Assembly (NCBI GenBank): GCA_035942035.1
Contig: DASZDK010000063.1
Coordinates: forward strand, 3,823 to 67,822
Length of the DNA: 64,000 nt
Direction of reading: 5' to 3'
From: Acidimicrobiales bacterium
GTDB taxonomy: Bacteria > Actinomycetota > Acidimicrobiia > Acidimicrobiales > CADCSY01
Positions 4,494 to 48,907 of the stretch are shown here, piece by piece (position 1 is the first letter of the stretch; each line of letters starts with the position of its first letter). Below the pieces are notes generated by a model, which was not told the origin of the DNA, ran no database searches, and saw nothing but the letters and a program-made list of their open reading frames with translations. The position numbers and the translations under genes are program-made.

Positions 4494-6071
4494 TCATCCT
4501 TGCTGCCTCCCGTCCGAGCCGGTGGATCGTGTCCCGACAAACCATGCCACGAGCCCCGCCACGACGGCCACGCCGACGATCAGCGCCCACAGTGGCGAGA
4601 CCGAGGAGCCCAAGCCGTGCACGGTCGTGGCGAACACGTCCTGGCGGCCACTGTCCCGGTCGCCGAGCCGGGTGTCGGTCCACGCGGCGACGGCACCGCC
4701 GTCGCCGCTGACCAGTCCCACACGAGTGCCGAAGTCGGTGCCGTAGAGCTCACCGAAGCTGGGGCCGACCTCGGAGCTGAAGGCCGCCGACGAGGCCGGC
4801 ACGTTGGTGAACGAGGCGCCAGCGTCGGTGGAGGTGGCGAGGTAGGCCTCGGTCATCACGTTGGCCGGGTCGTCACGCCGGTCGTAGAACAGCACGTCGA
4901 CCCGACCATCCGGAGCCACCGCCACCTGGGGCAGGTACTGGTCGGTCTGGTCCTCCACCGGGTTGTCGTTGACCCGTATGGCCTCGGTCCACGAGTCGCC
5001 CCCGTCGTCCGAACGGCGGACGAAGACGTCCTCGTCCCCGTTGCGCCCGTCGTGCCAGGCGGCGTACAGCACCCCGTCGGGACCGGTGGCCAGTGAGGGG
5101 GACTCGGGGAGGAAGACGAGGAAGCGCTCGGTGGGCACGATGCCGGCTTCCAGCTCGACGCCGGGCGAGAACGACGACCCGCCATCCTCGGAGCGGGTCA
5201 GCACCAAGGAGAAGAACCCGGAATGGGCGGGGCCCTCGAGGTTCTCGAAGTCCCGCCGGTCGTCCTTGAAGTCCTCGTAGAGCACGACGAGATCGCCACC
5301 CGAGTCCACGACCGGGCTGGGCGCGCCTACCCGTTCCCGCGCCGGGTCGCTGACGCGGACCGGGCCGGAGAAGGTCCCTCCCCCGTCCTGCGAGTACGAA
5401 GCGACGATGGCAGCCGACCCCACCAGGCGGTTGAGGCCGACGTTCGCGGCCTGGAGCCACACCACGTGCACGGTCCCGTCGGGGGCGACGGCGAGCCGGG
5501 CCTGGAACGTGAGCTCGCCCGCCACCTCGACCGGGGACTCGATGCTCCGCCCTCCGTCCTGCGACCGGGCCAGCCACAAGGTGGCTGGCGTGTTCCCGCG
5601 GCCCTCCAGGTGGACGTAGAGCACGTAGAGGGTGCCGTCGGGACCAAAGGCGACGTCCGGGGCGTAGGGGCATGGTGTCCGCTCGGGCGAGGCTGCGCAG
5701 GCGGGCGTGTCCGGCGGAAGGGGCAGTTTGGTGGCCTGCCAGCTGGCCCCGCCGTCCTCGCTCCACTCCAGGAGTGCGTCGAAGCCCGGGCGGTCGATGC
5801 GGTGAGCGACGACGAGGTGATCGGGCCGGGCCGGGTGGCGCACCACCGTGGGGGAGTTGTTGACGGTGATGATGCCGGGCGGGTTCACGAGGACGTCGCC
5901 AGCGTCTTGTGGGCCCGTGGTATTCGTCAACAGCACCACGGCCACGCCTACAGCGACCGCCAGTCCCACGACGGCGGCGACCAGGGCCACAAGCGAGCGG
6001 GTCACGTCTGCCTCATGCTCCTGGACTCCCTCGGTGCGGCGCGGCGATGCGGCGTCATTGGCAGGGCGCAC
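4494..6071 (-). CDS. BNR/Asp-box repeat beta-propeller protein with N- and C-terminal TM anchors (paralog 1)
   Basis: Six Asp-box motifs: SEDGGASW, SQDGGRS, SQDGGGTF, SEDGGSSF, SDDGGDSW, STDAGASF. TM helices at both ends. Collinear with 8692..10278. Confidence 0.85.
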   Translation of the reverse strand: MRPANDAASPRRTEGVQEHEADVTRSLVALVAAVVGLAVAVGVAVVLLTNTTGPQDAGDVLVNPPGIITVNNSPTVVRHPARPDHLVVAHRIDRPGFDALLEWSEDGGASWQATKLPLPPDTPACAASPERTPCPYAPDVAFGPDGTLYVLYVHLEGRGNTPATLWLARSQDGGRSIESPVEVAGELTFQARLAVAPDGTVHVVWLQAANVGLNRLVGSAAIVASYSQDGGGTFSGPVRVSDPARERVGAPSPVVDSGGDLVVLYEDFKDDRRDFENLEGPAHSGFFSLVLTRSEDGGSSFSPGVELEAGIVPTERFLVFLPESPSLATGPDGVLYAAWHDGRNGDEDVFVRRSDDGGDSWTEAIRVNDNPVEDQTDQYLPQVAVAPDGRVDVLFYDRRDDPANVMTEAYLATSTDAGASFTNVPASSAAFSSEVGPSFGELYGTDFGTRVGLVSGDGGAVAAWTDTRLGDRDSGRQDVFATTVHGLGSSVSPLWALIVGVAVVAGLVAWFVGTRSTGSDGRQQG

Positions 6072-6176
6072 TTATGATGCCAGGTACCAGCGCTGACCGG
6101 TGCCGCTCGACACCGGTCGCTGCGCCGGCTCCCGTCGTGCTGCTCGATTGAAGGGTGGTCCACCATCTCCTCGGAG

Positions 6177-7217
6177 TTGCAGGCCCGGGACCGGGCGGTC
6201 ACCGAGACGATGGCCCGCCAGCTCGACGTCGTAGAGGCGCTGGCGGCAACCGCACGGAGTGCCGCCGATGCGGGGACGAGGTGCTTGCGCTGGCTGGCCG
6301 TGGAGCGCCAGGCCACCACCTACCTGCGTCACCTCGCCTCCTGGGCCCAGACGCGGGTCCTCCGGGACCGGCTGTCCACCATTGCCGGCCACAGGACCGC
6401 CCTGGAGGCCCACGGGACGCGAGCGGGTGTGGAGCTCGAGGCGTTCGACGAGGAGGTCCGGCGCCGGGCCGTGGCCGACCTCGGGGTGCGGGTGGCGATC
6501 ATGGGAAAGGGGGGAGCGGGAAAGACGATGATCTGCGCCACGCTTGCCCGCCAGCTCGCCCGGCGGGGGCGGAAGGTGCTCGCCGTCGATCTCGACACCA
6601 ACCCTGGTCTGTCGATGAGCCTGGGGGTCGGGCCCAGTGCGCCGGGTCTCGGTCCAGAAGCGCTGGAGGAACATGCCGGCGCCAGCTACGGATGGCGCCT
6701 GGCGGAAGGGCTCACCGCCCTCGAAGCCGTGGAACGCCATTCCACGGTCGGCCCCGACGGTGTGCGCTTCCTGGCGGTGGGCAAGATCTGCTCAGTCGAC
6801 AAGACGGAGGCCAAGCGCTCGGTCCCGGCCATGACCGAGGTCCTTCTCGGCTTCGGTGCCCCTGACGTCGACGTGGTCGTCGATCTGGAGGCCGGACTCA
6901 CGACGCCCTTCGAGCGCTACCACTCCTTCGCCGACACCGTGGTGGTGGTGGTCGGCCCCGCTTGGAAGTCGGCGCTGACGGCCAGGCGGCTCCTGCCGAT
7001 GGTCGGCGAGCGGGACACCATCGTGGTGGCCAACCGGGTTGGGGACGAGCCGCACCACCCGGGTCTCGCACCGAGGGTGCGGGTCCCGTTCGACCCCTGC
7101 GTGGTCCACGCCGAACGGGAGGGGCGAGCGCCGATGGATGCCTGTCCGACCTCACCAGCGACGCGCGCGGTCGACACGCTCGGTGACGTTCTTCTGACCA
7201 AGGAGGAAACAGCATGA
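6177..7217 (+). CDS. CooC/MinD-family P-loop ATPase with an approximately 100-aa helical N-terminal extension (paralog 1)
   Basis: Deviant Walker A GKGGAGKT at residue ~110, and DLEAGL Walker-B-like motif. The extension keeps high GC3 in frame. Start is TTG 6177 or ATG 6210. No CXC motif. Confidence 0.8.
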   Translation: MQARDRAVTETMARQLDVVEALAATARSAADAGTRCLRWLAVERQATTYLRHLASWAQTRVLRDRLSTIAGHRTALEAHGTRAGVELEAFDEEVRRRAVADLGVRVAIMGKGGAGKTMICATLARQLARRGRKVLAVDLDTNPGLSMSLGVGPSAPGLGPEALEEHAGASYGWRLAEGLTALEAVERHSTVGPDGVRFLAVGKICSVDKTEAKRSVPAMTEVLLGFGAPDVDVVVDLEAGLTTPFERYHSFADTVVVVVGPAWKSALTARRLLPMVGERDTIVVANRVGDEPHHPGLAPRVRVPFDPCVVHAEREGRAPMDACPTSPATRAVDTLGDVLLTKEETA

Positions 7218-7963
7218 AGGTGGCGGTAGCAGGCAAGGGTGGGTCGGGCAAGAGCACGGTCAGCGGTGCGTTGGCCCGCTTCCTGGCGCGCCGAGGTCAC
7301 GAGGTGATCGCCATCGACGCCGATCCCAACCCCAACCTCGGGATCTCGCTGGGTCTGCCTCCAGGCTCGGTCGAGACCATGCGGCCCATCCTCAACGCCC
7401 TTCTCGACAGCGGTCACACTCACGACGACCCCACGCCGCCGGCCGACGAGCTGTTGTCACGGTACGGCGTCGAGGCGCCCGACGGCGTGACCTTGGTGGC
7501 CACCGGCAAGATCGAACGCCCGTCGAGCGCCTGCTTGTGCTGCGGCTCGCACAACACCACCCGGCAGTTCTTCGGAGAGCTTCCCGCCGACGACCGCGTC
7601 GTGGTGGCTGACCTCGAAGCCGGGCTCAACGACCTCATCTGGGCCCACCCCGGGCCCCAGGACGTCGTGCTCGCCGTGACCGAGGGCAGCGCCAAGTCGG
7701 TCGAGGTGGCCCGCCGTGCGTGCCGGCTCGCCGAAGAGCTCGGCGTCAGTCGCATCATCGCCGTCGCCAACCGGATGCTGAGCGAGGCGGACGTGGAGGT
7801 GGTTGCCGGGGCGCTCGGCGTCGAGGAGGTGGTGGGCGTTCCCGAGGATCCGGCCGTGGAGCACGCCGACAACCTGGGACTGGCGCCCATCGACGTGGAC
7901 CCGGGCTCGCCGGCGTTGGCGGCGCTCGACCAGCTGGCGCAGCGGCTCGTCGCCGCGACGTAG
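7214..7963 (+). CDS. CooC-type nickel-insertion-like P-loop ATPase (paralog 2)
   Basis: ATGA overlap with the upstream gene. MKVAVAGKGGSGKST at the N-terminus, Cys motif ACLCCGSH (CXC), and DLEAGLNDL. Confidence 0.85.
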   Translation: MKVAVAGKGGSGKSTVSGALARFLARRGHEVIAIDADPNPNLGISLGLPPGSVETMRPILNALLDSGHTHDDPTPPADELLSRYGVEAPDGVTLVATGKIERPSSACLCCGSHNTTRQFFGELPADDRVVVADLEAGLNDLIWAHPGPQDVVLAVTEGSAKSVEVARRACRLAEELGVSRIIAVANRMLSEADVEVVAGALGVEEVVGVPEDPAVEHADNLGLAPIDVDPGSPALAALDQLAQRLVAAT

Positions 7964-8012
7964 CCTCAGCCGACCCGGGAGCCCGGCCACGCCGGGATAC
8001 CGGGCGTGAGCA

Positions 8013-8801
8013 TCACTCGAAGGGAGTGCATCGAGGTCGACTCCGAGCGTCGGCACGTGAGATGACAGCGGCCAGCGCTTCGATCCCCTCGACCGCCGAT
8101 GCGGAAGGCTGCATGTCCAGCAGGCAGTGACCGGCTCGATCTGCTCGGATGATCGCCTCGTCCTCGGGGATCACCCCGAGCAAATCCACGCCGTGGTCCC
8201 CGGCGAAGGCTTCCAGGTGGTGCCGGTCGTCGTCGCCCGCTCGGTTGCCCACCAAACCGATCTCCGGGATGCCGAGTTGTCGCCCGAGGGCGATGGTTCG
8301 CGAGGCTGTGAGGAGCGACTTCACTTGAGGATTGGCCACCACGAGCAACAGATCAGCATGGCGAAGGGTGCCGCCGGCCCACGACAGGTGCTCGAGTCCC
8401 GCCTCCATGTCTGCGAGGACGATCGTCTCGGGGAGCACGGTCTCGATGTCCTGCAGGACGTCACGTACCGTGACGTGGGATACCCCCGTTCAACCGCTTC
8501 CGGCCTTCTCGACTCGGGCCCCGAGCACGAAGGTGACGCCGTCGGGTCCGGCCAGCCCGTACTCGGACAGAAGCTCCAGTGGTCGGAGCGATGGGACCTG
8601 CCGGTGGCCACCCGACTGGTCGAGCAAGGGTCGCATCGCAGACACCTGCTCTTCGGCGACCCCACTGTTGGCGGCGAGGTTGGGATCAGAGTCACAGTCG
8701 ACGGCGACGACGTGGTGGCCGGCGCGGGCGAGGAGCCGGCACAACACCGCCGCGATGCTGGTCTTGCCCGCGCCGCCCTTGCCGGAGATGCCTATGCGCA
8801 T
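8013..8801 (-). CDS. CooC-type P-loop ATPase (paralog 3) interrupted by one in-frame TGA at 8492..8490; selenocysteine candidate or fresh pseudogene
   Basis: ORFs 8490..8801 and 8013..8438 share one frame. MRIGISGKGGAGKTS at the N-terminus and ADMEAGLEHL after the TGA. The TGA aligns with the first Cys of the paralog's CXC motif. Confidence 0.75.
8458..8476 (-). promoter_or_regulatory. SECIS-like hairpin 13 nt downstream of the in-frame UGA
   Basis: mRNA reads ACGUCACG-GUA-CGUGACGU: a perfect 8-bp stem with a G/U-containing apical loop about 22 nt from the UGA. Confidence 0.35.
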
Positions 8802-10278
8802 GTACGGATGCTACGCCCATGGGACGCCAGGCGAGGATGGCGCCCACGAGCAGGAGGGCACCGCCGGTGGCGGCCAACGGCCAGCGAGGCCCCTGCGCTT
8901 CGGTCACCTCGACGGCGGCCATCGCCAGGTCCTGGATGTTGGTGGCCACCGAGCCTCTGGTGGTGTCGGCCCAGAACGAAAGCGCCCGGTCCTCTTGCGA
9001 GACCACGGCCAACTGGCTCCCCAGCTGGGGAAGGTCCTGGGCACTCCCGAAGCCGATGCGGGAGTCGAACGCCGTGGCCGACACGGTGGTGGCGACGAAG
9101 GTGGTCGCCCCGTCGTTAGAGGAGGCCAGCGTCACCTCGGCCAGCACGTCGGCGGGATCGGCACTGCGGTCGTAGAACGCCACGTCGACCCGGCCGCCGG
9201 GCGCCACCCCCACCGCCGGCAGGTACTGAGCACCAGGTCGAGGAAGCACGGCTCGAGCAGGTGACCACGTCTGCCCTGCGTCGTCGGAGTGGGCGAGGAA
9301 CACGTCGCGGGAGTCGGCCCGGCCCTCGTCCCAGACCGAGTAGAGGCGCCCCGACCCCATGTCCCAGGCGAACCCGGGGGTGGGGCCGAGGTTCACGATG
9401 ATGCGCGACGGCGGCACCACACCGTCGGCCACCACGGCAGCCGGACCGAAGGTGGCTCCTCGATCGTCGGACGTCCATGAGACCACCCGCCACGGCTCAT
9501 CGCTCGGTGGTCCTCCCTGCCCACCGTGGCGTGCCTCGTAGTCGGAGTGGTCAGCGCCGAGGTCGAGGGCGCCGATCACGACCCGGCCGCCCGGCCCGAA
9601 CAGCACCGTGGGCTGAAGCAGCAGGCGGTCGTCGGCGCTGACCTTCACCGGCGACCCGAAGCTCCGGCCACCGTCATCAGACCGGGCCAGAACGACCGGG
9701 TTGGGCGGTGGAGGAAAGCCGAGCGGGACCTCCGCCGCCGCCGGTCCAGCCTGTACCCAGGTCACCAACACCCGCGTGCCCTCGGTCGCCAGCCGAGCAT
9801 GGAACGCCTCGGGCCCGGCCACGACCACCGGTGCCCCCTCGGGTTGGTCCTCCCGAAAGCGATGGAGCCACACCCCGACCGGCTGGTTGAACCGTCCACC
9901 GGTGGCGGTACTGAGCACGAGCAGGTCGCCGGTGTCGGTGAAGGCGACGTCGGGGGCGTGGCAGTTCGGCTGTTCGGGAGCGAGGGGCAGGGGCAGGGAT
10001 TCCCATGTCACCCCACCGTTGGTGGACCGCCAGATCGAGCAGGAGAACCGGGGCGTGTCGATGCGATCCGCCACCACCAGGACCTCGGGACGTCGAGGAT
10101 GGACCGCCACCGCCGGCGAGTTGTGGGCGGCGATGCCGGGACGGTCCAAGTTGACGACGACGGTGTTGCCCCGTTCCAGGGCGGCGGGGCGAGGCTGAAC
10201 CGCCACCACGACGAGTACGACGCCGGCGACCGCCGCCAGCACGCCGCCGAGCGCCCGCCTGTTCCTCCACCGCTCCAC
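8692..10278 (-). CDS. BNR/Asp-box repeat beta-propeller protein with N- and C-terminal TM anchors (paralog 2)
   Basis: Five Asp-box motifs: STNGGVTW, SDDGGRSF, SDDRGATF, SDDAGQTW, SNDGATTF. GTG start at 10278. The last 110 nt overlap the start of the CooC-like gene out of frame. Confidence 0.85.
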   Translation of the reverse strand: MERWRNRRALGGVLAAVAGVVLVVVAVQPRPAALERGNTVVVNLDRPGIAAHNSPAVAVHPRRPEVLVVADRIDTPRFSCSIWRSTNGGVTWESLPLPLAPEQPNCHAPDVAFTDTGDLLVLSTATGGRFNQPVGVWLHRFREDQPEGAPVVVAGPEAFHARLATEGTRVLVTWVQAGPAAAEVPLGFPPPPNPVVLARSDDGGRSFGSPVKVSADDRLLLQPTVLFGPGGRVVIGALDLGADHSDYEARHGGQGGPPSDEPWRVVSWTSDDRGATFGPAAVVADGVVPPSRIIVNLGPTPGFAWDMGSGRLYSVWDEGRADSRDVFLAHSDDAGQTWSPARAVLPRPGAQYLPAVGVAPGGRVDVAFYDRSADPADVLAEVTLASSNDGATTFVATTVSATAFDSRIGFGSAQDLPQLGSQLAVVSQEDRALSFWADTTRGSVATNIQDLAMAAVEVTEAQGPRWPLAATGGALLLVGAILAWRPMGVASVHAHRHLRQGRRGQDQHRGGVVPAPRPRRPPRRRRRL

Positions 10279-40352: not shown

Positions 40353-40895
40353 TCAGCCCCGGCCGGGCAGGCGCAGCCGGCGGCGTTCGCCGGCGCCCTC
40401 GGCGGCCAACACCTGGTCCCGCAGCGCCCGCTTGGCCTGCCGGCGCTGGTCGTCGTCGAGCCGCTCGAGCAGCAGCACGCCGTCGAGATGGTCGACCTCG
40501 TGCTGGAACAGCCGGGCCAGGAGCTCGTCGGCCTCGAACGAGACCTCGTTGCCGTCGAGGTCTCGCCCGGTCAGGTGCACCTCCTTGGGCCGGACGATCT
40601 CCCATGACAGCCCTGGCACCGAGAGGCAGCCCTCCTCGTAGACCCACTCGCCCCGCGTCTCGGTGATGACCGGGTTGACCAGCACGTGGGCGCCGTCGCC
40701 GTCGTGCAGGTCGTAGACGAACAGCCGCTTCTGGACGCCGACCTGGGGAGCGGCCAAGCCGATGCCCGGCGCCTCGTACATGGTCACGATCATGTCCTCG
40801 GCCAAGCGGGCCAACCGGCCGTCGATCTCGGTCACCGGGGCTGCCGGTTGACGCAGCACGGGGTCACCGACGATGCGAATCCCGTACGGAGCCAT
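40353..40895 (-). CDS. def: Peptide deformylase
   Basis: GIGLAAPQVG, EGCLSVPG, HEVDHLDG. Confidence 0.95.
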   Translation of the reverse strand: MAPYGIRIVGDPVLRQPAAPVTEIDGRLARLAEDMIVTMYEAPGIGLAAPQVGVQKRLFVYDLHDGDGAHVLVNPVITETRGEWVYEEGCLSVPGLSWEIVRPKEVHLTGRDLDGNEVSFEADELLARLFQHEVDHLDGVLLLERLDDDQRRQAKRALRDQVLAAEGAGERRRLRLPGRG

Positions 40896-41138
40896 GCCGG
40901 TCAGGCTAGTGCTGTCCCCGGAGAGGTCCCCTGCCCCAGGCACCGATCACGCCTCCGTGGCCCTCCCGGCCCCGTGCTGCGCCTTCGGCGGTCATGCCGG
41001 CGGCCGAAAGCTCCCGGCCAGGAAGGGACACCAGTCCCTGGTCGACGGGACAATTCGCCCACCACGCTGCCCCTTGGCCGTTTTCGGACAACGGGGCCTC
41101 CCGGCCCCGTCCTCGGCCACGGAGACCAGGAGGCCACC

Positions 41139-42518
41139 ATGAGCCCGCCCCACCACGGTTCGTTCGAGCAGCGAGGCCAGAAGACGCCCGCCGGCAATCG
41201 ACAGCTCGAAGGGCGGTTCGGCTTCATGTTCAAGCACCTCGACCCGTTCTCACCCCCCGACGAGCTGTTGCGAGGGCTGGCCGCCACCATGCACCAACCA
41301 CCGCCCGACCCGGCGACCCAGTTCGACAACCCCGAGATTCCCGCTGGCTACACCTTCTTCGGGCAGTTCGTCGACCACGACCTCACCTTCGACCCGGTCT
41401 CTCAGCTCGAAAGGGACCAGGACCCAGAGGGCCTGAAGAACTTCCGGACGCCGGTCTACGACCTCGACTCCGTCTACGCCGGCGGCCCCGGTGTCACCCC
41501 CCGGTTGTACGACGGCGCCAAGCTGCGCCTGGACCACCACGACGGGTTGGACGACCTTCCCCGCAAGGACGACGGCGCCGCCGACATCGGCGACCCTCGC
41601 AACGAGGAGAACGCCGTCATCCACCAGCTGCAGATCGCGTTCGTCAAGTTCCACAACGCCGTGGTCGACCACGTGGCCGGCTCCGGCACCCCAAACGGCG
41701 ACGTGTTCACCGAGGCCCGCCGCCTCGCCCTGCGCCACTACCAGTGGGCCGTGCTCACCGACTTCGTGCCTCGTATCTGTGGCCAGAACGTGGTCGACAC
41801 CATCCTGACCAAGCCGTCCGGCAACGCGCCCATCCGAGCCGACCTGCGCTTCTACAAGCCCAAGAAGGTCCCGTTCATGCCGGTCGAGTTCTCGGTGGCG
41901 GCCTACCGCTTCGGCCACAGCCAGATCCGTGCGGGCTACCGGCTGACCGACACCACCGGAGGGGTGTTCTTCCAACCCGAGGCCGGTGAGCGCAACCTCA
42001 ACGGCTTCCGGCCCCTCCTGCCCTCGCTGAAGCTCGACTGGCCGCACTTCTTCGACATCCCGGGCTCGCCCACGAGCCCCCAGCGCTCCATGCGCATCGA
42101 CTCCAAGATCTCCTTCCCGCTGTTCCAGCTGCCCTTCGGAGGCCCGCCGGCGTCGCTCGCCGAGCGCAACCTGCTGCGGGGCAAGGCCCTGCGATTGCCG
42201 TCGGGCCAGGCGGTGGCCGTCGCCATGGGCCTCCAGCCCCTGTCCAACGCCACCCTCGGCATGCCCGACGACCGGGGATGGGACGGCCAGGCGCCGCTGT
42301 GGTTCTACGTGTTGAAGGAGGCGGAGCTGCAGCACGCCGGGACCCGCCTGGGCCCGGTCGGTGCCCGCATCGTCGCTGAAACCCTCGTCGGGCTGCTGGC
42401 CCAGAACCGCGACTCGTTCTTCCGCCTCGACCCGGGCTGGAAGCCGGTGCCCCCGATCGCCCCCACCGAGGGCACATTCGGCGTAGGTGACCTCCTGGCC
42501 TTCGCCACCCGATCGTGA
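41139..42518 (+). CDS. Bacterial member of the animal-haem-peroxidase (peroxidase-cyclooxygenase) superfamily
   Basis: AGGAGG Shine-Dalgarno. Distal-His motif FFGQFVDHDLTF and proximal-His region AAYRFGHSQI. Confidence 0.82.
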   Translation: MSPPHHGSFEQRGQKTPAGNRQLEGRFGFMFKHLDPFSPPDELLRGLAATMHQPPPDPATQFDNPEIPAGYTFFGQFVDHDLTFDPVSQLERDQDPEGLKNFRTPVYDLDSVYAGGPGVTPRLYDGAKLRLDHHDGLDDLPRKDDGAADIGDPRNEENAVIHQLQIAFVKFHNAVVDHVAGSGTPNGDVFTEARRLALRHYQWAVLTDFVPRICGQNVVDTILTKPSGNAPIRADLRFYKPKKVPFMPVEFSVAAYRFGHSQIRAGYRLTDTTGGVFFQPEAGERNLNGFRPLLPSLKLDWPHFFDIPGSPTSPQRSMRIDSKISFPLFQLPFGGPPASLAERNLLRGKALRLPSGQAVAVAMGLQPLSNATLGMPDDRGWDGQAPLWFYVLKEAELQHAGTRLGPVGARIVAETLVGLLAQNRDSFFRLDPGWKPVPPIAPTEGTFGVGDLLAFATRS

Positions 42519-43761: not shown

Positions 43762-44552
43762 GCTCCGAAGGCAGTGCTGGACCGCGAACCTCCGGTCGGC
43801 GGGAGCCGCCGCGGTTCCGGCGGGTCCTGGTCCGGGCCTTCGAGCAACTGACCCCGCGGATGCAGCGGATCGTCCTCGGCGGTCCCGAGCTCCAGGGATT
43901 CGAGGTCCCCGAGCCGGCATCCAGCGTCCGCCTCCTCCTTCCGCCGCCGGGCGGGGACACCTTGGTCATGCCGGAGTGGGACGGCAACCAGTTCAAGCTG
44001 CCCACCGGTGAGCGAGCGCCGATCCGTACCTTCACGCCGCGGCATCTCGACACCGAGCGACTCGAGCTGACGCTCGACATCGTCGTCCACGAAGGCGGTG
44101 TCGCCTCCGAATGGGCCCGCTCGGCTGAGCCCGGCCTCGAGGCGGCGGTCTCCGGTCCGGGCCGGGGCTACGCCCTCGCCGCCACCGCCCCGGCCTATCT
44201 GCTGGCGGGTGACGAGACCGCCATCCCCGCCATCAGCCAGATGCTCGAGCGGTTGCCGGCGGAAACACCGGTGCGGGTGCACATCGAGGTCGCCGATGCC
44301 TCCGCCCGTCTCGAGCTGCCCTCGTACCCCAAGGCCGAGGTGACCTGGCACGAGCTGGCTCCAGGGTCGCGGCCCGGTGACGCCCTGGTTGCTGCGGTCG
44401 AGGCGATCGAGCAGATCCCGGGTGCCGCCTGGGTGGCGGGTGAGGCGGCCTCCGTCCAGCGAATTCGCAAGCACCTCTTCGACGTCAGAGGCATGGCCCG
44501 CTCCGCGGCGACGGTCCGGGGCTACTGGAAGATGGGCCGCTCCGCCACGTGA
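43758..44552 (+). CDS. Siderophore-interacting (SIP/ViuB-type) FAD-binding reductase
   Basis: ATGA overlap with the MFS gene. RTFTPR FAD motif, LLAGDETAIPAI, and VRGYWK at the C-terminus. Confidence 0.85.
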   Translation: MSSEGSAGPRTSGRREPPRFRRVLVRAFEQLTPRMQRIVLGGPELQGFEVPEPASSVRLLLPPPGGDTLVMPEWDGNQFKLPTGERAPIRTFTPRHLDTERLELTLDIVVHEGGVASEWARSAEPGLEAAVSGPGRGYALAATAPAYLLAGDETAIPAISQMLERLPAETPVRVHIEVADASARLELPSYPKAEVTWHELAPGSRPGDALVAAVEAIEQIPGAAWVAGEAASVQRIRKHLFDVRGMARSAATVRGYWKMGRSAT

Positions 44553-44724
44553 GGGCTCGCTGGGTTACCGACGCAGCCGCTCACCGGGATGGGATCTGCC
44601 CTCACGTGAAGGTACGCTGGCACCCGCTCGGGAAGGGGCTCCTCAAGCACATGAAGCCGCTCCAGTTCAGCCTGGAGGAGCTGCGGGACGAGCTCCTCCG
44701 CCACCGGACCAGCGTCCGCAGCCG

Positions 44725-46308
44725 GTGATCGGAACACCCAGCGGCATCGCCGCCGAGGCAGCTCGCCGGCGCACCTTCGCCATCATCAGCCACCCCGACG
44801 CGGGCAAGACGACCCTGACCGAGAAGCTGTTGCTCTACGGGGGCGCGGTGGCCGAGGCCGGTGCGGTCAAGGCTCGCTCCGGTCGGCGCAAGGCCACCTC
44901 GGACTGGATGGCCCTCGAGCAGCAGCGGGGCATCTCGATCACGTCCACGGTGCTGCAGTTCTCCTACCGCGACCACGTCATCAACCTGCTCGACACCCCG
45001 GGTCACCGCGACTTCTCCGAGGACACCTACCGGGTGCTGGCCGCCGCCGACGCCGCCGTCATGGTTCTCGACGTGGCCAAGGGCGTCGAGGACCAGACCC
45101 GCAAGCTGTTCGAGGTGTGCCGGGCCCGGTCGTTGCCCACGCTGACCTTCCTCAACAAGTACGACCGCCCCGGCCGAGAACCGCTCGAACTGCTCGACGA
45201 GGTCGAGGACCAGATCGGGCTGCGCCCCACGCCGGTCACCTGGCCGGTGGGCATCCCCGGCGAGTTCCGGGGCGTGATCGATCGTCGCAGTGGTGAGTTC
45301 ACCCGCTTCGCCCGCACCGCCCGCGGCTCGACGGAGGCGCCCGAGGAGCTCATCGAGCGATCGCGGGCGGCGACGGAGGAGACCCCGTGGTGGGAGCCGG
45401 CCATGGAGGAGTGCGCCCTGCTCGACGCCGTGGGCGCCGATCCCGACCTGAAGTCGTTCCTGGCCGGCGAGTCGAGCCCCACCTTCGTGGGCTCGGCGCT
45501 GACTAACTTCGGGGTCCGCCACCTGCTCGACGCCCTGCTCGACATGGCGCCCGCCCCCGGGCCACGCAACGACGTCCACGGCGAGCCCCGCCCCCTGGAC
45601 AAACCCTTCTCCGGGTTCGTGTTCAAGGTGCAGGCCAACATGGACCCCGCCCACCGCGACCGGGTGGCCTTCGTGCGGGTGTGCTCGGGCCGCTTCGAGC
45701 GGGGCATGACGCTGACGCATGAGCCCAGCGGGCGGCCCTTTGCCACCAAGTACGCCACCTCGGTGTTCGGTTCCGAGCGCGACACCATCGACGAGGCCTA
45801 CCCCGGCGACGTGATCGGGCTGGTCAACGCCACCGACCTCGGCATCGGCGACACCCTCCATCAGGCGGAGCCGGTGGCCTTCCCCCGCATCCCCACCTTC
45901 GCCCCCGAGCTGTTCGCCGTGGCCCGGGCCCGGGACACCTCCCGGTTCAAGCAGTTCCGCCGGGGCCTGGCCCAGCTCGCCGAGGAGGGCGTGGTCCAGG
46001 TGCTGCGAGACGAGGCCGCCGGCGACGTGGCGCCGGTGCTCGCCGCCGTGGGGCGGATGCAGTTCGAGGTCTTCGCCCACCGGCTGGAGCACGAGTTCGG
46101 CGCCGCCGTCGAGATCTCCCCCACCTCCGACAAGGTGGCACGTCGCACCGATGCCGCCACCGCCGAACATCTCCGGTCGACGTCGGGGGCCCGGGTGCTC
46201 ACCCGCACCGACGGCGTGCTCCTCGCCTTGTTCACCAGCCCCCGCTGGCTCGAACGGGTCGAGGCAGACCATCCCGACTGGACCCTCGACCCCATCGTGG
46301 TGGACTGA
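44725..46308 (+). CDS. prfC: Peptide chain release factor 3
   Basis: RRRTFAIISHPDAGKTTLTEKLL, DWMALEQQRGISITS, DTPGHRDF, NKYD. Confidence 0.93.
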   Translation: MIGTPSGIAAEAARRRTFAIISHPDAGKTTLTEKLLLYGGAVAEAGAVKARSGRRKATSDWMALEQQRGISITSTVLQFSYRDHVINLLDTPGHRDFSEDTYRVLAAADAAVMVLDVAKGVEDQTRKLFEVCRARSLPTLTFLNKYDRPGREPLELLDEVEDQIGLRPTPVTWPVGIPGEFRGVIDRRSGEFTRFARTARGSTEAPEELIERSRAATEETPWWEPAMEECALLDAVGADPDLKSFLAGESSPTFVGSALTNFGVRHLLDALLDMAPAPGPRNDVHGEPRPLDKPFSGFVFKVQANMDPAHRDRVAFVRVCSGRFERGMTLTHEPSGRPFATKYATSVFGSERDTIDEAYPGDVIGLVNATDLGIGDTLHQAEPVAFPRIPTFAPELFAVARARDTSRFKQFRRGLAQLAEEGVVQVLRDEAAGDVAPVLAAVGRMQFEVFAHRLEHEFGAAVEISPTSDKVARRTDAATAEHLRSTSGARVLTRTDGVLLALFTSPRWLERVEADHPDWTLDPIVVD

Positions 46309-47639: not shown

Positions 47640-48758
47640 CTACGCCGCGAGCGGAACGGCGCGGGCTTTGGCCAGCGCCACGGCAAGCCGAGACAGGATC
47701 GTCAGGTCGGCGTGCAGCCGTACCCGCTCGATCCGACGCACCCGGAGGGGCAGCAGCGCCCATTCGTGCTTCAACCGGCCGAAACCTCGCTCGACGCCAC
47801 CACGGCTCCGGTAAAGGGCCTTCCAACGGGCCGTCTCCCGAGGGATGAGGGTGTGCAGCCGGTCAGCCTTGATCCACACGCTGGCCGGGGAGCACTCGCC
47901 AGAGGGGCAGCGGTACTTGGCCGCTCCACGCTTGGCGTCGGAACCGGCGGAGGTCCACCGGCCGTGCTCGCACGAAGGGGGCAGGTGCTAACCAGCCACG
48001 ACCTTGCCGGTCATGCGGAGCGGTGCCACCGGTCGGACGTTGCGAGCCTCGCACGCTTCGTAGAACGAACCGGCGTCGTAGCCCTTGTCAGCGATGCAGA
48101 CGGAAGGCGTGATCCCGTAGCCGGCCAGCTTGTCCGGCAGCGCCGGAACGACCGGGACCTTTGCGTCTCGCGCCGTGTGCGTCTCCCACGCCACCGGAAG
48201 GTCAGTGGCCGTGCAGACGGCAGCGTGGAGTTTGTAGCCGTAGAACCCTCCGCCCTTGCGGGTGGAGACGGCCGAACGGTGGCCCCACGACGCGTCGGGG
48301 TCAGAGAACCGCTCCCGCAGCTTTCCGCCCTTGCACACGAGCCGCTGGCCGTTGGCGTAGGCGGGAAGATCGGAGCCGTCGATGGCGACGTGCTCGCCGT
48401 ACTCAGGCAACTCGACGTGCAGGGAGGCGATGACGGCTGCGATGCAGGTGTCCAGCGCACCCCTGTGCTCGCGCAGCTTGCGGGTGAAGCGGTAGCAGGC
48501 GTCAACCGAGGGAGCGCCACCGATGGCCTTGCGGAGCGCAGCGTGCTCGCCTACCAAACGAACGGTGCGGGTCCACGTCGGCAGCACGTAGAGCGACTTC
48601 ACCAGCGTCATGCCCACCATCGTGCGGATGGGGTAACCAGGGCGCCCGGTGCAGCGCGTCGCTTGAAGATCGGCGATGAGAGCGGCGACCTCCGGGCTAC
48701 GGAAGCAGGCTCGCAAGCTGTTCGGCGTCGCGCCGAGGAGTACGGTGGCCTTGGCCAT
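47640..48758 (-). pseudogene. IS5/IS1182-like DDE transposase interrupted by one in-frame TAG (47990..47988)
   Basis: ORFs 47988..48758 and 47640..47879 share one frame. DUF772-like N-terminus (GRPGYPIRTMVGMTLVKSLY) and a DDE triad context: AIDGSD, IADKGYD, VERGFGRLKHEW. Confidence 0.85.
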
Positions 48759-48907
48759 GGAGGTGCAACTCCTTGGTCCAGACCCCGGGAGGTTGCCGCC
48801 TCGCCGGGGTCACTCCTTCGTTTAGGTCGTCCTACCTCTCATACTACGAGAGGGGTGGGACAGTAATGAACCCGTTGCGCCCACCTATTGAAGCGAAATA
48901 CCCCTCG

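Follow-up and report, generated by a model that had tools for sequence, protein, structure and literature searches.

The ATPase CooC1, which acts in the maturation of nickel-containing CO dehydrogenase (CODH), carries a C-X-C motif (Cys112/Cys114) that binds metal at the dimer interface. Selenocysteine (Sec) replaces a metal-ligand Cys in FdhA (Sec-Mo/W) and in the large subunit of [NiFeSe] hydrogenase (Sec-Ni). The 2026 catalog of prokaryotic selenoproteins comprises 119 families and subfamilies, and a CooC-, MinD-, ParA- or NifH-type ATPase is not among them. The subject of the present analysis is a gene on the minus strand (8801..8013) of a 64-kb stretch of DNA from an Acidimicrobiales bacterium (GenBank assembly GCA_035942035.1, contig DASZDK010000063.1, positions 3,823 to 67,822 of the forward strand; hereafter the window, with a G+C content of 72%). 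This gene very probably encodes a Sec-containing ATPase of the CooC/MinD type, a conclusion drawn from a conserved UGA codon, the presence of Cys at the same position in homologs, a hairpin of the Sec insertion sequence (SECIS) type that accompanies only the UGA, and a downstream reading frame that is under selection.

The gene is complete and comprises 262 codons in a single frame: 103 sense codons, a TGA (8492..8490), and a further 158 sense codons that are followed by a terminal TGA (8015..8013). An earlier note, made from the letters of this stretch alone, had described one frame split by a single TGA and a merged product of 262 residues, with which the translation of 8801..8013 agrees; its remaining sequence-level statements hold as well. 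When Cys is placed at the TGA, the merged product matches the Pfam families CbiA (1.6e-19) and, over its full length, Fer4_NifH (6.4e-14), and it displays a deviant Walker A motif (P-loop GKGGAGKT, residues 7-14; 8760..8783, minus strand) that is kept in all family members. The best match to a solved structure (HMMER) is CooC1 of Carboxydothermus hydrogenoformans (PDB 3KJE, E=3.4e-17, residues 1-224), and the same alignment places the TGA column on Cys112 of the C112-Y-C114 motif (segment S-Q-C-Y-C). In an AlphaFold model (predicted local distance difference test score, pLDDT, 90.9), residue 104 lies in the loop preceding helix 106-122, and the Foldseek matches of this model include MinD, FlhG, CooC1 (template-modeling score on the query, TMq, 0.74) and NifH (TMq up to 0.78). 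The protein is most likely a homodimer-type P-loop ATPase of the MinD/CooC/NifH (SIMIBI) class.

The residue that occupies the TGA column elsewhere was assessed in an alignment of 74 Sec-type genes with 114 full-length homologs from a protein search. In the latter, the column holds Cys in 113 sequences and Ser in one divergent protein, and the Cys codon is TGC in all three Cys-form genes examined at the DNA level (L100, L101 and L103). Collinearity of the merged product with the convergent paralog at 7214..7963 (plus strand; 36% identity to the Sec gene), whose Cys-rich motif reads S-A-C-L-C-C-G-S-H, and the position of the TGA on the first Cys of the C-L-C-C in that motif had both been proposed beforehand, and both are borne out by alignment with MAFFT. 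The assignment of a CXC motif stands in part: the TGA does sit on the first Cys of the motif of the paralog, but the Sec subfamily itself is of the U/C-x-G type (U denoting Sec), with the second Cys replaced by Gly. This Gly is present in all 74 Sec forms and in ten sister Cys forms (CxG), whereas CxC is kept in the other 103, more distant, Cys-bearing homologs. Two further cysteines are specific to the U/C-x-G subfamily. Cys36, in a D-C-D segment (8694..8696, minus strand), is shared by all 74 Sec forms and by 9 of 10 CxG forms, whereas 97 of 103 CxC forms have Thr; Cys226 (8124..8126, minus strand) is found in 72 of 74 Sec forms and 8 of 10 CxG forms, and the position varies between Val, Ser, Ala and Pro in CxC forms. 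His109, five residues after the Sec (8475..8477, minus strand), shows wider conservation, being present in all 103 CxC forms and in 7 of 10 CxG forms; in the Sec forms it was demanded by the search pattern described below, and it is also present in the four Sec forms that were found without this pattern. It is a possible extra metal ligand. These column counts are best read as placing the Sec gene in a U/C-x-G subfamily from which the second Cys of the CXC motif has been lost. That Cys36 and Cys226 are conserved only in this subfamily suggests that the metal site was rebuilt upon this loss.

For comparison at the DNA level, the merged sequence was used in a protein search and the DNA of the closest relatives was then inspected. 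Many of the matches were full-length homologs, and the closest were of two kinds: C-terminal fragments (P0021 and P0023, 69-71% identity) and a protein, P0001, in which the critical column is occupied by Trp. An in-frame TGA is present at the same column in four of the four closest relatives, namely L001 (GCA_030447365.1), L002 and L003 (two Logan assemblies) and L004 (a Joint Genome Institute (JGI) contig, 3300061607), which were found via protein similarity alone and are 62-71% identical to the window gene. The TGA of P0001, encoded on L004, was translated as Trp, JGI having apparently picked a Mycoplasma-type code for a high-G+C contig. A degenerate DNA pattern (GGN-TGA-ACN-GGN-N6-CAY-RTN-ACN-RTN-CGN-GAY) was scanned over two large collections and matched 51 GTDB species-representative contigs, all of them metagenome-assembled genomes (MAGs) of Actinomycetota, and 44 metagenome contigs. 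All 95 matches are TGA-form ATPase genes, with zero off-target hits, and the taxon labels of the 51 contigs comprise Acidimicrobiales, Acidimicrobiia, Actinomycetota, Mycobacteriales, Pseudonocardiaceae, Nitriliruptorales and Actinomycetales. Wherever the contig includes the 5' part, about 104 codons separate a GKGGxGK P-loop from the TGA that follows, and 145-170 codons are open downstream in nearly all 95 matches. All 92 distinct family sequences have the TGA in one and the same alignment column, and the other conserved cysteines of the Sec-form genes are encoded by TGC or TGT. In the 74 unique full-length genes, about 150 codons are open past the TGA, and the median ratios of nonsynonymous to synonymous substitution rates (dN/dS, Nei-Gojobori) are 0.30 upstream and 0.43 downstream of it. 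The downstream half of the TGA-form gene is under purifying selection.

The TGA is accompanied by a SECIS-like hairpin that was delineated by sequence, folding and family conservation. In the window it lies 13 nucleotides (nt) past the TGA on the minus strand (8476..8458, ACGTCACG-GTA-CGTGACGT), with an 8-bp stem, a GUA loop and a minimum free energy (MFE), when folded alone, of -10.6 kcal/mol. The perfect 8-bp hairpin described in the earlier note is therefore present here, but only the inner 5 bp and an A17-U35 pair are conserved family-wide. Numbered with the U of UGA as position 1 and compared over 92 distinct sequences, the core reads GUCAC-[S G U N C]-GUGAC, with an invariant stem (G19-U-C-A-C23 / G29-U-G-A-C33), invariant G25 and U26 in the loop, and a variable N27. 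The 24:28 pair is formed as G-C in 62 sequences and is an unpaired C.C in 30; the outer pairs are lineage-specific, 18:34 forming in 6 of 92 sequences and A17-U35 being possible in 90 of 92. In the window, the core corresponds to GUCAC (8474..8470), the loop G-G-U-A-C (8469..8465) and GUGAC (8464..8460).

Codon usage across the hairpin bears on whether the RNA or the peptide is constrained. The search pattern left every third codon position free, and zero synonymous variation is seen, among 101 columns with a conserved amino acid, only at codons +6, +9 and +10, which are exactly the stem codons: Val +6 is GTC, Arg +9 is CGT and Asp +10 is GAC in 74 of 74 genes. CGT accounts for 9.7% of the Arg codons in Sec-form genes, and every other conserved Arg column is a mixture of CGC and CGG. 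In the loop, by contrast, the codon for Val +8 is free to change (GTC, GTG, GTT and GTA). Cys-form orthologs encode a similar peptide with other codons and lack the hairpin (MFE 0 to -0.9 kcal/mol), compared with a median of -7.1 kcal/mol for the core hairpin in Sec forms. Judged by these codons, the hairpin is under selection at the RNA level. Its geometry can be compared with that of bacterial SECIS (bSECIS) elements as given in a 2026 review (loop of 3-9 nt beginning with G[G/U], upper stem of 4-16 bp, UGA-to-loop distance of 16-37 nt, MFE <= -7.5 kcal/mol). The spacing from UGA to loop is 20-21 nt, a stem of 5-6 bp, lengthened to 8 bp in the window, closes a loop of GUN or SGUNC, and the MFE is -10.6 kcal/mol in the window and, folded over nt 4-48, at or below -7.5 kcal/mol in 99% of sequences; the bacterial SECIS geometry that had been claimed for this hairpin thus agrees with the quoted values. 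Rfam gave no SECIS match at the gathering threshold, and the sole match at E<=10 on 8380..8560 was a chance small-RNA match on the opposite strand. A search for other copies of the hairpin core gave one unrelated match in 699 kb, and so no second selenoprotein gene.

Several observations weigh against a Sec-containing product. Neither the 64-kb window nor about 700 kb of related loci yielded selA, selB, selD or tRNA-Sec, although these are small parts of the genomes concerned, and the absence of sel genes from them neither supports nor refutes Sec incorporation. No compensatory change was found at any base pair of the hairpin in the 92 sequences; covariation cannot be counted because the stem is invariant, and support for the hairpin accordingly rests on synonymous-site conservation and not on covariation. 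The earlier expectation of a conserved hairpin is therefore borne out in that it occurs only in TGA forms and its synonymous sites are fixed, but not in respect of covariation. The bare core, with its median of -7.1 kcal/mol, is slightly weaker than the model threshold of -7.5 kcal/mol. That the peptide T-G-x-x-H-V-T-V-R-D does not vary among the 95 scan matches was partly imposed by the pattern, and only the four protein-search matches are unbiased in this respect. Every carrier genome from the scans is a MAG or a metagenome contig. Finally, four of the 95 copies look damaged, with frameshifts in L012 and L021, two in-frame TAG codons in L030 (codons +116 and +135) and an extra TGA in L038 (codon -19), which may represent occasional decay (pseudogenes) or assembly errors.

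The searches for the decoding machinery covered several kinds of evidence. In the window, ARAGORN and Rfam gave no tRNA or other Rfam family, and Pfam scans of about 50 open reading frames (ORFs) gave no SelA, SelB or SelD domain; a SelB-like GTPase match proved to be RF3 (44344..46308). When all related loci were searched (tblastn) for counterparts of SelA, SelB and SelD of E. coli, the outcome was GTPase-domain noise only, and ARAGORN found no tRNA-Sec on 95 loci. A SelA consensus of E. coli and Aquifex, masked by turning variable positions to Ala, was compared with a large protein database, and the best 120 matches were all Klebsiella-like. Two long tRNA-Cys(GCA) calls by ARAGORN, located a few kb from the Sec gene, were considered as tRNA-Sec-like candidates (L036 6432..6510, minus strand, 79 nt; L066 5281..5366, plus strand, 86 nt); they have no Rfam tRNA match at E<=0.01 and an anticodon, GCA, that is wrong for UGA, and are probably spurious calls in G+C-rich DNA. 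The literature documents Sec decoding in Actinobacteria, and a 2026 preprint reports it in the class Acidimicrobiia, in Actinomarina. A Sec trait in the carrier lineages is therefore plausible.

Two of the competing explanations can be set aside on the conservation of the frame and the use of TGA elsewhere. The earlier note had left the choice between a Sec-containing CooC-type NTPase and a very recent TGY-to-TGA nonsense pseudogene among redundant paralogs. Two paralogs do adjoin the Sec gene, and extra stops or frameshifts occur in four of 95 members; however, the same TGA is present in about 95 independent contigs, including those of Acidimicrobiales, Mycobacteriales, Pseudonocardiaceae and Nitriliruptorales, and the 74 unique full-length genes retain about 150 open codons past it with a dN/dS of 0.43. 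Orthologs have either Cys (TGC) or TGA at this column, the check on downstream dN/dS gave this same 0.43, and relatives show no downstream decay apart from the four damaged copies. The pseudogene is thereby refuted, with hardly any probability left to it, and the Sec-containing NTPase is supported by the alternation of TGA and Cys, the TGA-only hairpin and the intact downstream frame. A change of the genetic code, in which TGA would mean Trp or Gly genome-wide, might be read from the W that the JGI gene call gives for the TGA of P0001. This W is a gene-caller artifact on a 1-kb contig (L004 209..970), however, and one that masks the selenoprotein candidate; TGA is the main stop codon of the window, terminating 40 of 59 candidate genes, the Sec gene included, and about half of the orthologs also terminate in TGA. 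This explanation, too, is refuted and has next to no chance of being correct.

The other explanations accept the TGA and the hairpin as functional. Read-through of the UGA, promoted by the hairpin, could insert Cys or Trp, for example by means of a tRNA-Sec-like tRNA(Cys) delivered by SelB, and the full-length protein would form without selenium. Such recoding accounts equally well for the TGA conservation, for the hairpin and for the intact frame that follows; no Sec machinery was seen in the DNA examined, and Cys at this position is clearly functional in orthologs. However, a TGC without hairpin would suffice for Cys, as in the sister Cys forms, and unless Sec itself brought a benefit, it would be difficult to account for the upkeep of a UGA and a constrained hairpin in 51 species; moreover, the G-U of the loop is a signature of SECIS elements that bind SelB, and the two long tRNA-Cys calls near the gene have a GCA anticodon and no Rfam support. 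Recoding of this kind is unlikely. It is highly unlikely that the TGA is a true stop between separate polypeptides of 103 and about 141-158 residues, with the hairpin serving translational coupling or re-initiation. The annotation does show two ORFs, for instance a 103-residue 'AAA family ATPase' (MBW3547978.1) and C-terminal fragments of 144-145 residues, and individual sequences have an in-frame GTG or ATG downstream. But this start is not conserved (codon +18 in the window, about +12 in L001 and about +13 in L003), and codons +3, +4 and +11 to +20, which precede candidate starts, evolve as coding sequence, with synonymous and conservative changes. In addition, the T-G-x-x-H segment between the TGA and the starts is part of an uninterrupted protein in Cys forms, and a stop exactly on a conserved metal-ligand Cys would not be expected of a random split. 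In a broader version of these explanations, the carriers would lack canonical selABCD, and the UGA and hairpin would be decoded by a SelB-independent or non-canonical tRNA (for Cys or Sec) or form a programmed split. This would amount to a new recoding mechanism in high-G+C Actinomycetota and is very unlikely; an ordinary, SelB-decoded and hitherto unrecognized selenoprotein family is more likely.

For a Sec-containing ATPase, the following sequence of events is proposed. On arrival of the ribosome at the UGA (8492..8490), the hairpin core GUCAC/GUGAC, 15 nt downstream, would present its invariant G-U in a loop of 3-5 nt and act as a bacterial SECIS. It would recruit SelB-GTP-Sec-tRNA(Sec), Sec would be inserted, and a further 158 codons would be translated. 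The Sec would take the place of Cys112 of CooC1, that is, of a metal ligand at the dimer interface. As may be supposed from CooC1 and NifH, ATP-driven dimerization would juxtapose two Sec104 residues, and this pair, possibly with His109, Cys36 and Cys226, could form a binding site for a soft metal or a cluster. From there the cofactor might be passed to a client, in the manner of a chaperone.

The genomic context provides few indications of such a client. The Sec gene is part of a mirror-like cluster (4494..10278) in which a BNR protein (minus), an extended paralog (plus), the CxC paralog (plus), the Sec-ATPase (minus) and a second BNR protein (minus) follow one another. The BNR/Asp-box repeat protein directly upstream of the Sec gene (8692..10278, minus strand) and the other copy (4494..6071, minus strand) are assigned by weak Pfam BNR_2/BNR matches. 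The extended paralog (6177..7217, plus strand), assigned by Pfam and alignment, has an N-terminal extension of about 100 residues, and it was called as a gene of 335 residues in L104. About 110 nt (8692..8801, minus strand) are shared, in different frames, by the ORF of the upstream BNR protein and the start of the Sec-ATPase (ATG at 8801); the overlap is unusually long, unless the BNR gene in fact ends earlier. The start of the Sec-ATPase is well conserved. A BNR protein and paralogous ATPases also adjoin the Sec gene in L029 and L053, and a BNR homolog is found near it in L045 and L017. Across the related loci, however, the neighbors are variable, and none is universal or points to a client; the synteny with leuCD, a WYL regulator and a signal peptidase, considered as a clue, is lineage-specific. 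A gene of 277 residues lies upstream in 29 loci and has no Pfam match.

Some loci have neighbors of related interest. An 84-residue NifU-domain gene (Nfu-type Fe-S carrier) was noted at L101 5715..5969, L102 4007..4261 and also L100 1422..1676. It lies directly upstream of the Cys-form (C-T-G) ortholog in two assemblies (L101 and L102) and in no Sec-form locus, and hints weakly at Fe-S clusters, rather than nickel, as what the subfamily handles. In other bacteria, the Redoxin, DsbA-like and DUF3179 families have Sec forms. Genes for a Redoxin/thioredoxin, DsbA, a zf-HC2 anti-sigma factor and DUF3179 are located at 329..4396 of L001, about 5-9 kb upstream of the Sec-ATPase, and the ORFs called there for Redoxin, DsbA and DUF3179 are uninterrupted.

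The rest of the window is of a housekeeping character (ftsH, pheT, rplT, infC, thyX, hisG, ribBA, ribD, fmt, prfC, metK, priA, gmk, pyrF and carAB). It also contains a 636-residue ORF (40608..42518, plus strand) of the animal heme peroxidase family (PF03098, 3e-19), an unexpected family for a housekeeping region of an actinobacterium; after it come a major facilitator superfamily (MFS) transporter and a siderophore-interacting flavin adenine dinucleotide (FAD)-binding protein. The segment 47640..50056 (minus strand) is probably an inserted mobile element: it comprises a DDE transposase (47988..48809) beside a 382-residue ORF that has a clearly lower third-position G+C content (0.68, compared with about 0.9) and that alone among the called genes ends in TAA.

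The family described here is in all likelihood a new selenoprotein family that is decoded by the ordinary bacterial mechanism. With the Sec-ATPase, every NCBIfam model stays below its cut-off, the best being TIGR01969 (minD_arch) at 81 bits against 201.75, and no NCBIfam selenoprotein model matches. A literature search combining CooC or CODH maturation factor with selenoprotein or selenocysteine gave nothing relevant and no Sec form of CooC; an apparent mention of 'CooC' in an mBio 2017 paper was the word 'cooccurrence'. The main text of the deep-Sep paper mentions no selenoprotein family of the CooC/MinD type. In the NCBI annotation, the family appears as fragments, a 103-residue 'AAA family ATPase' and an unnamed C-terminal part, and elsewhere it is mistranslated with Trp. 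It is taxonomically widespread, well supported and currently mis-annotated.

If confirmed, it would be a new entry for the selenoprotein catalog, and Sec at what is, by homology to CooC1, the metal-binding site of an accessory-type ATPase, not of a redox enzyme, would be an unusual place for this residue. The sister U-x-G and C-x-G forms would allow a direct comparison of what selenium contributes to metal handling. The simple and invariant SECIS could serve as a marker of Sec decoding in Acidimicrobiia and related MAGs, and the Sec-ATPase is possibly among the proteins that keep the Sec trait in soil actinobacteria. According to a 2026 review, selenoprotein-rich bacteria are predominantly anaerobic; by contrast, the carriers of the Sec-ATPase are Actinomycetota MAGs and metagenome contigs.

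The closest known systems can now be compared with the Sec-ATPase. The Sec position probably corresponds to Cys97 of NifH (G-x-G-C-x-G), a [4Fe-4S] ligand at the dimer interface. A likeness to NifH/BchL is further indicated by the full-length Fer4_NifH match (6.4e-14) and the Foldseek TMq of up to 0.78; however, no NCBIfam model of the NifH or BchL type comes near its cut-off, and no second cluster Cys was identified at the position of NifH Cys132. With CooC1, the Sec-ATPase shares the deviant Walker A motif, the D-x-E-A-G-x-E-H switch motif and the fold. It differs in that the second Cys of the motif is replaced by Gly (U-T-G), such that the metal-binding C-X-C motif of CooC is absent, in the additional presence of Cys36 and Cys226, and in its hosts, which are high-G+C Actinomycetota. 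No CODH family emerged when the ORFs called across the 64-kb window were scanned against Pfam. Because the binding site appears remodeled, the CXC is missing and the window ORF scans contain no CODH family, the protein should not be called CooC, and 'CooC-type' is meant to name a likeness in sequence and fold, not a function.

FdhA and [NiFeSe] hydrogenase resemble the Sec-ATPase in having a UGA with a hairpin inside the coding sequence and in the coexistence of Cys homologs; by contrast, they are catalytic metalloenzymes, mostly of anaerobes, whereas the Sec-ATPase is of the accessory type. The CobW-related selenoprotein is a G3E GTPase, from a different branch of P-loop NTPases than the MinD/CooC-type ATPases, and its UxxC corresponds to the metal-binding Cys motif of its family, compared with U-x-G in the Sec-ATPase. 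It is the nearest entry of the 2026 catalog (NF041053, UxxC, COG0523), which takes it from its ref. 60, cited for the selenoproteome of the Olavius algarvensis Delta 1 symbiont. Being a Sec-bearing P-loop NTPase of the metallochaperone type, it sets a precedent for Sec among NTPases that handle metals.

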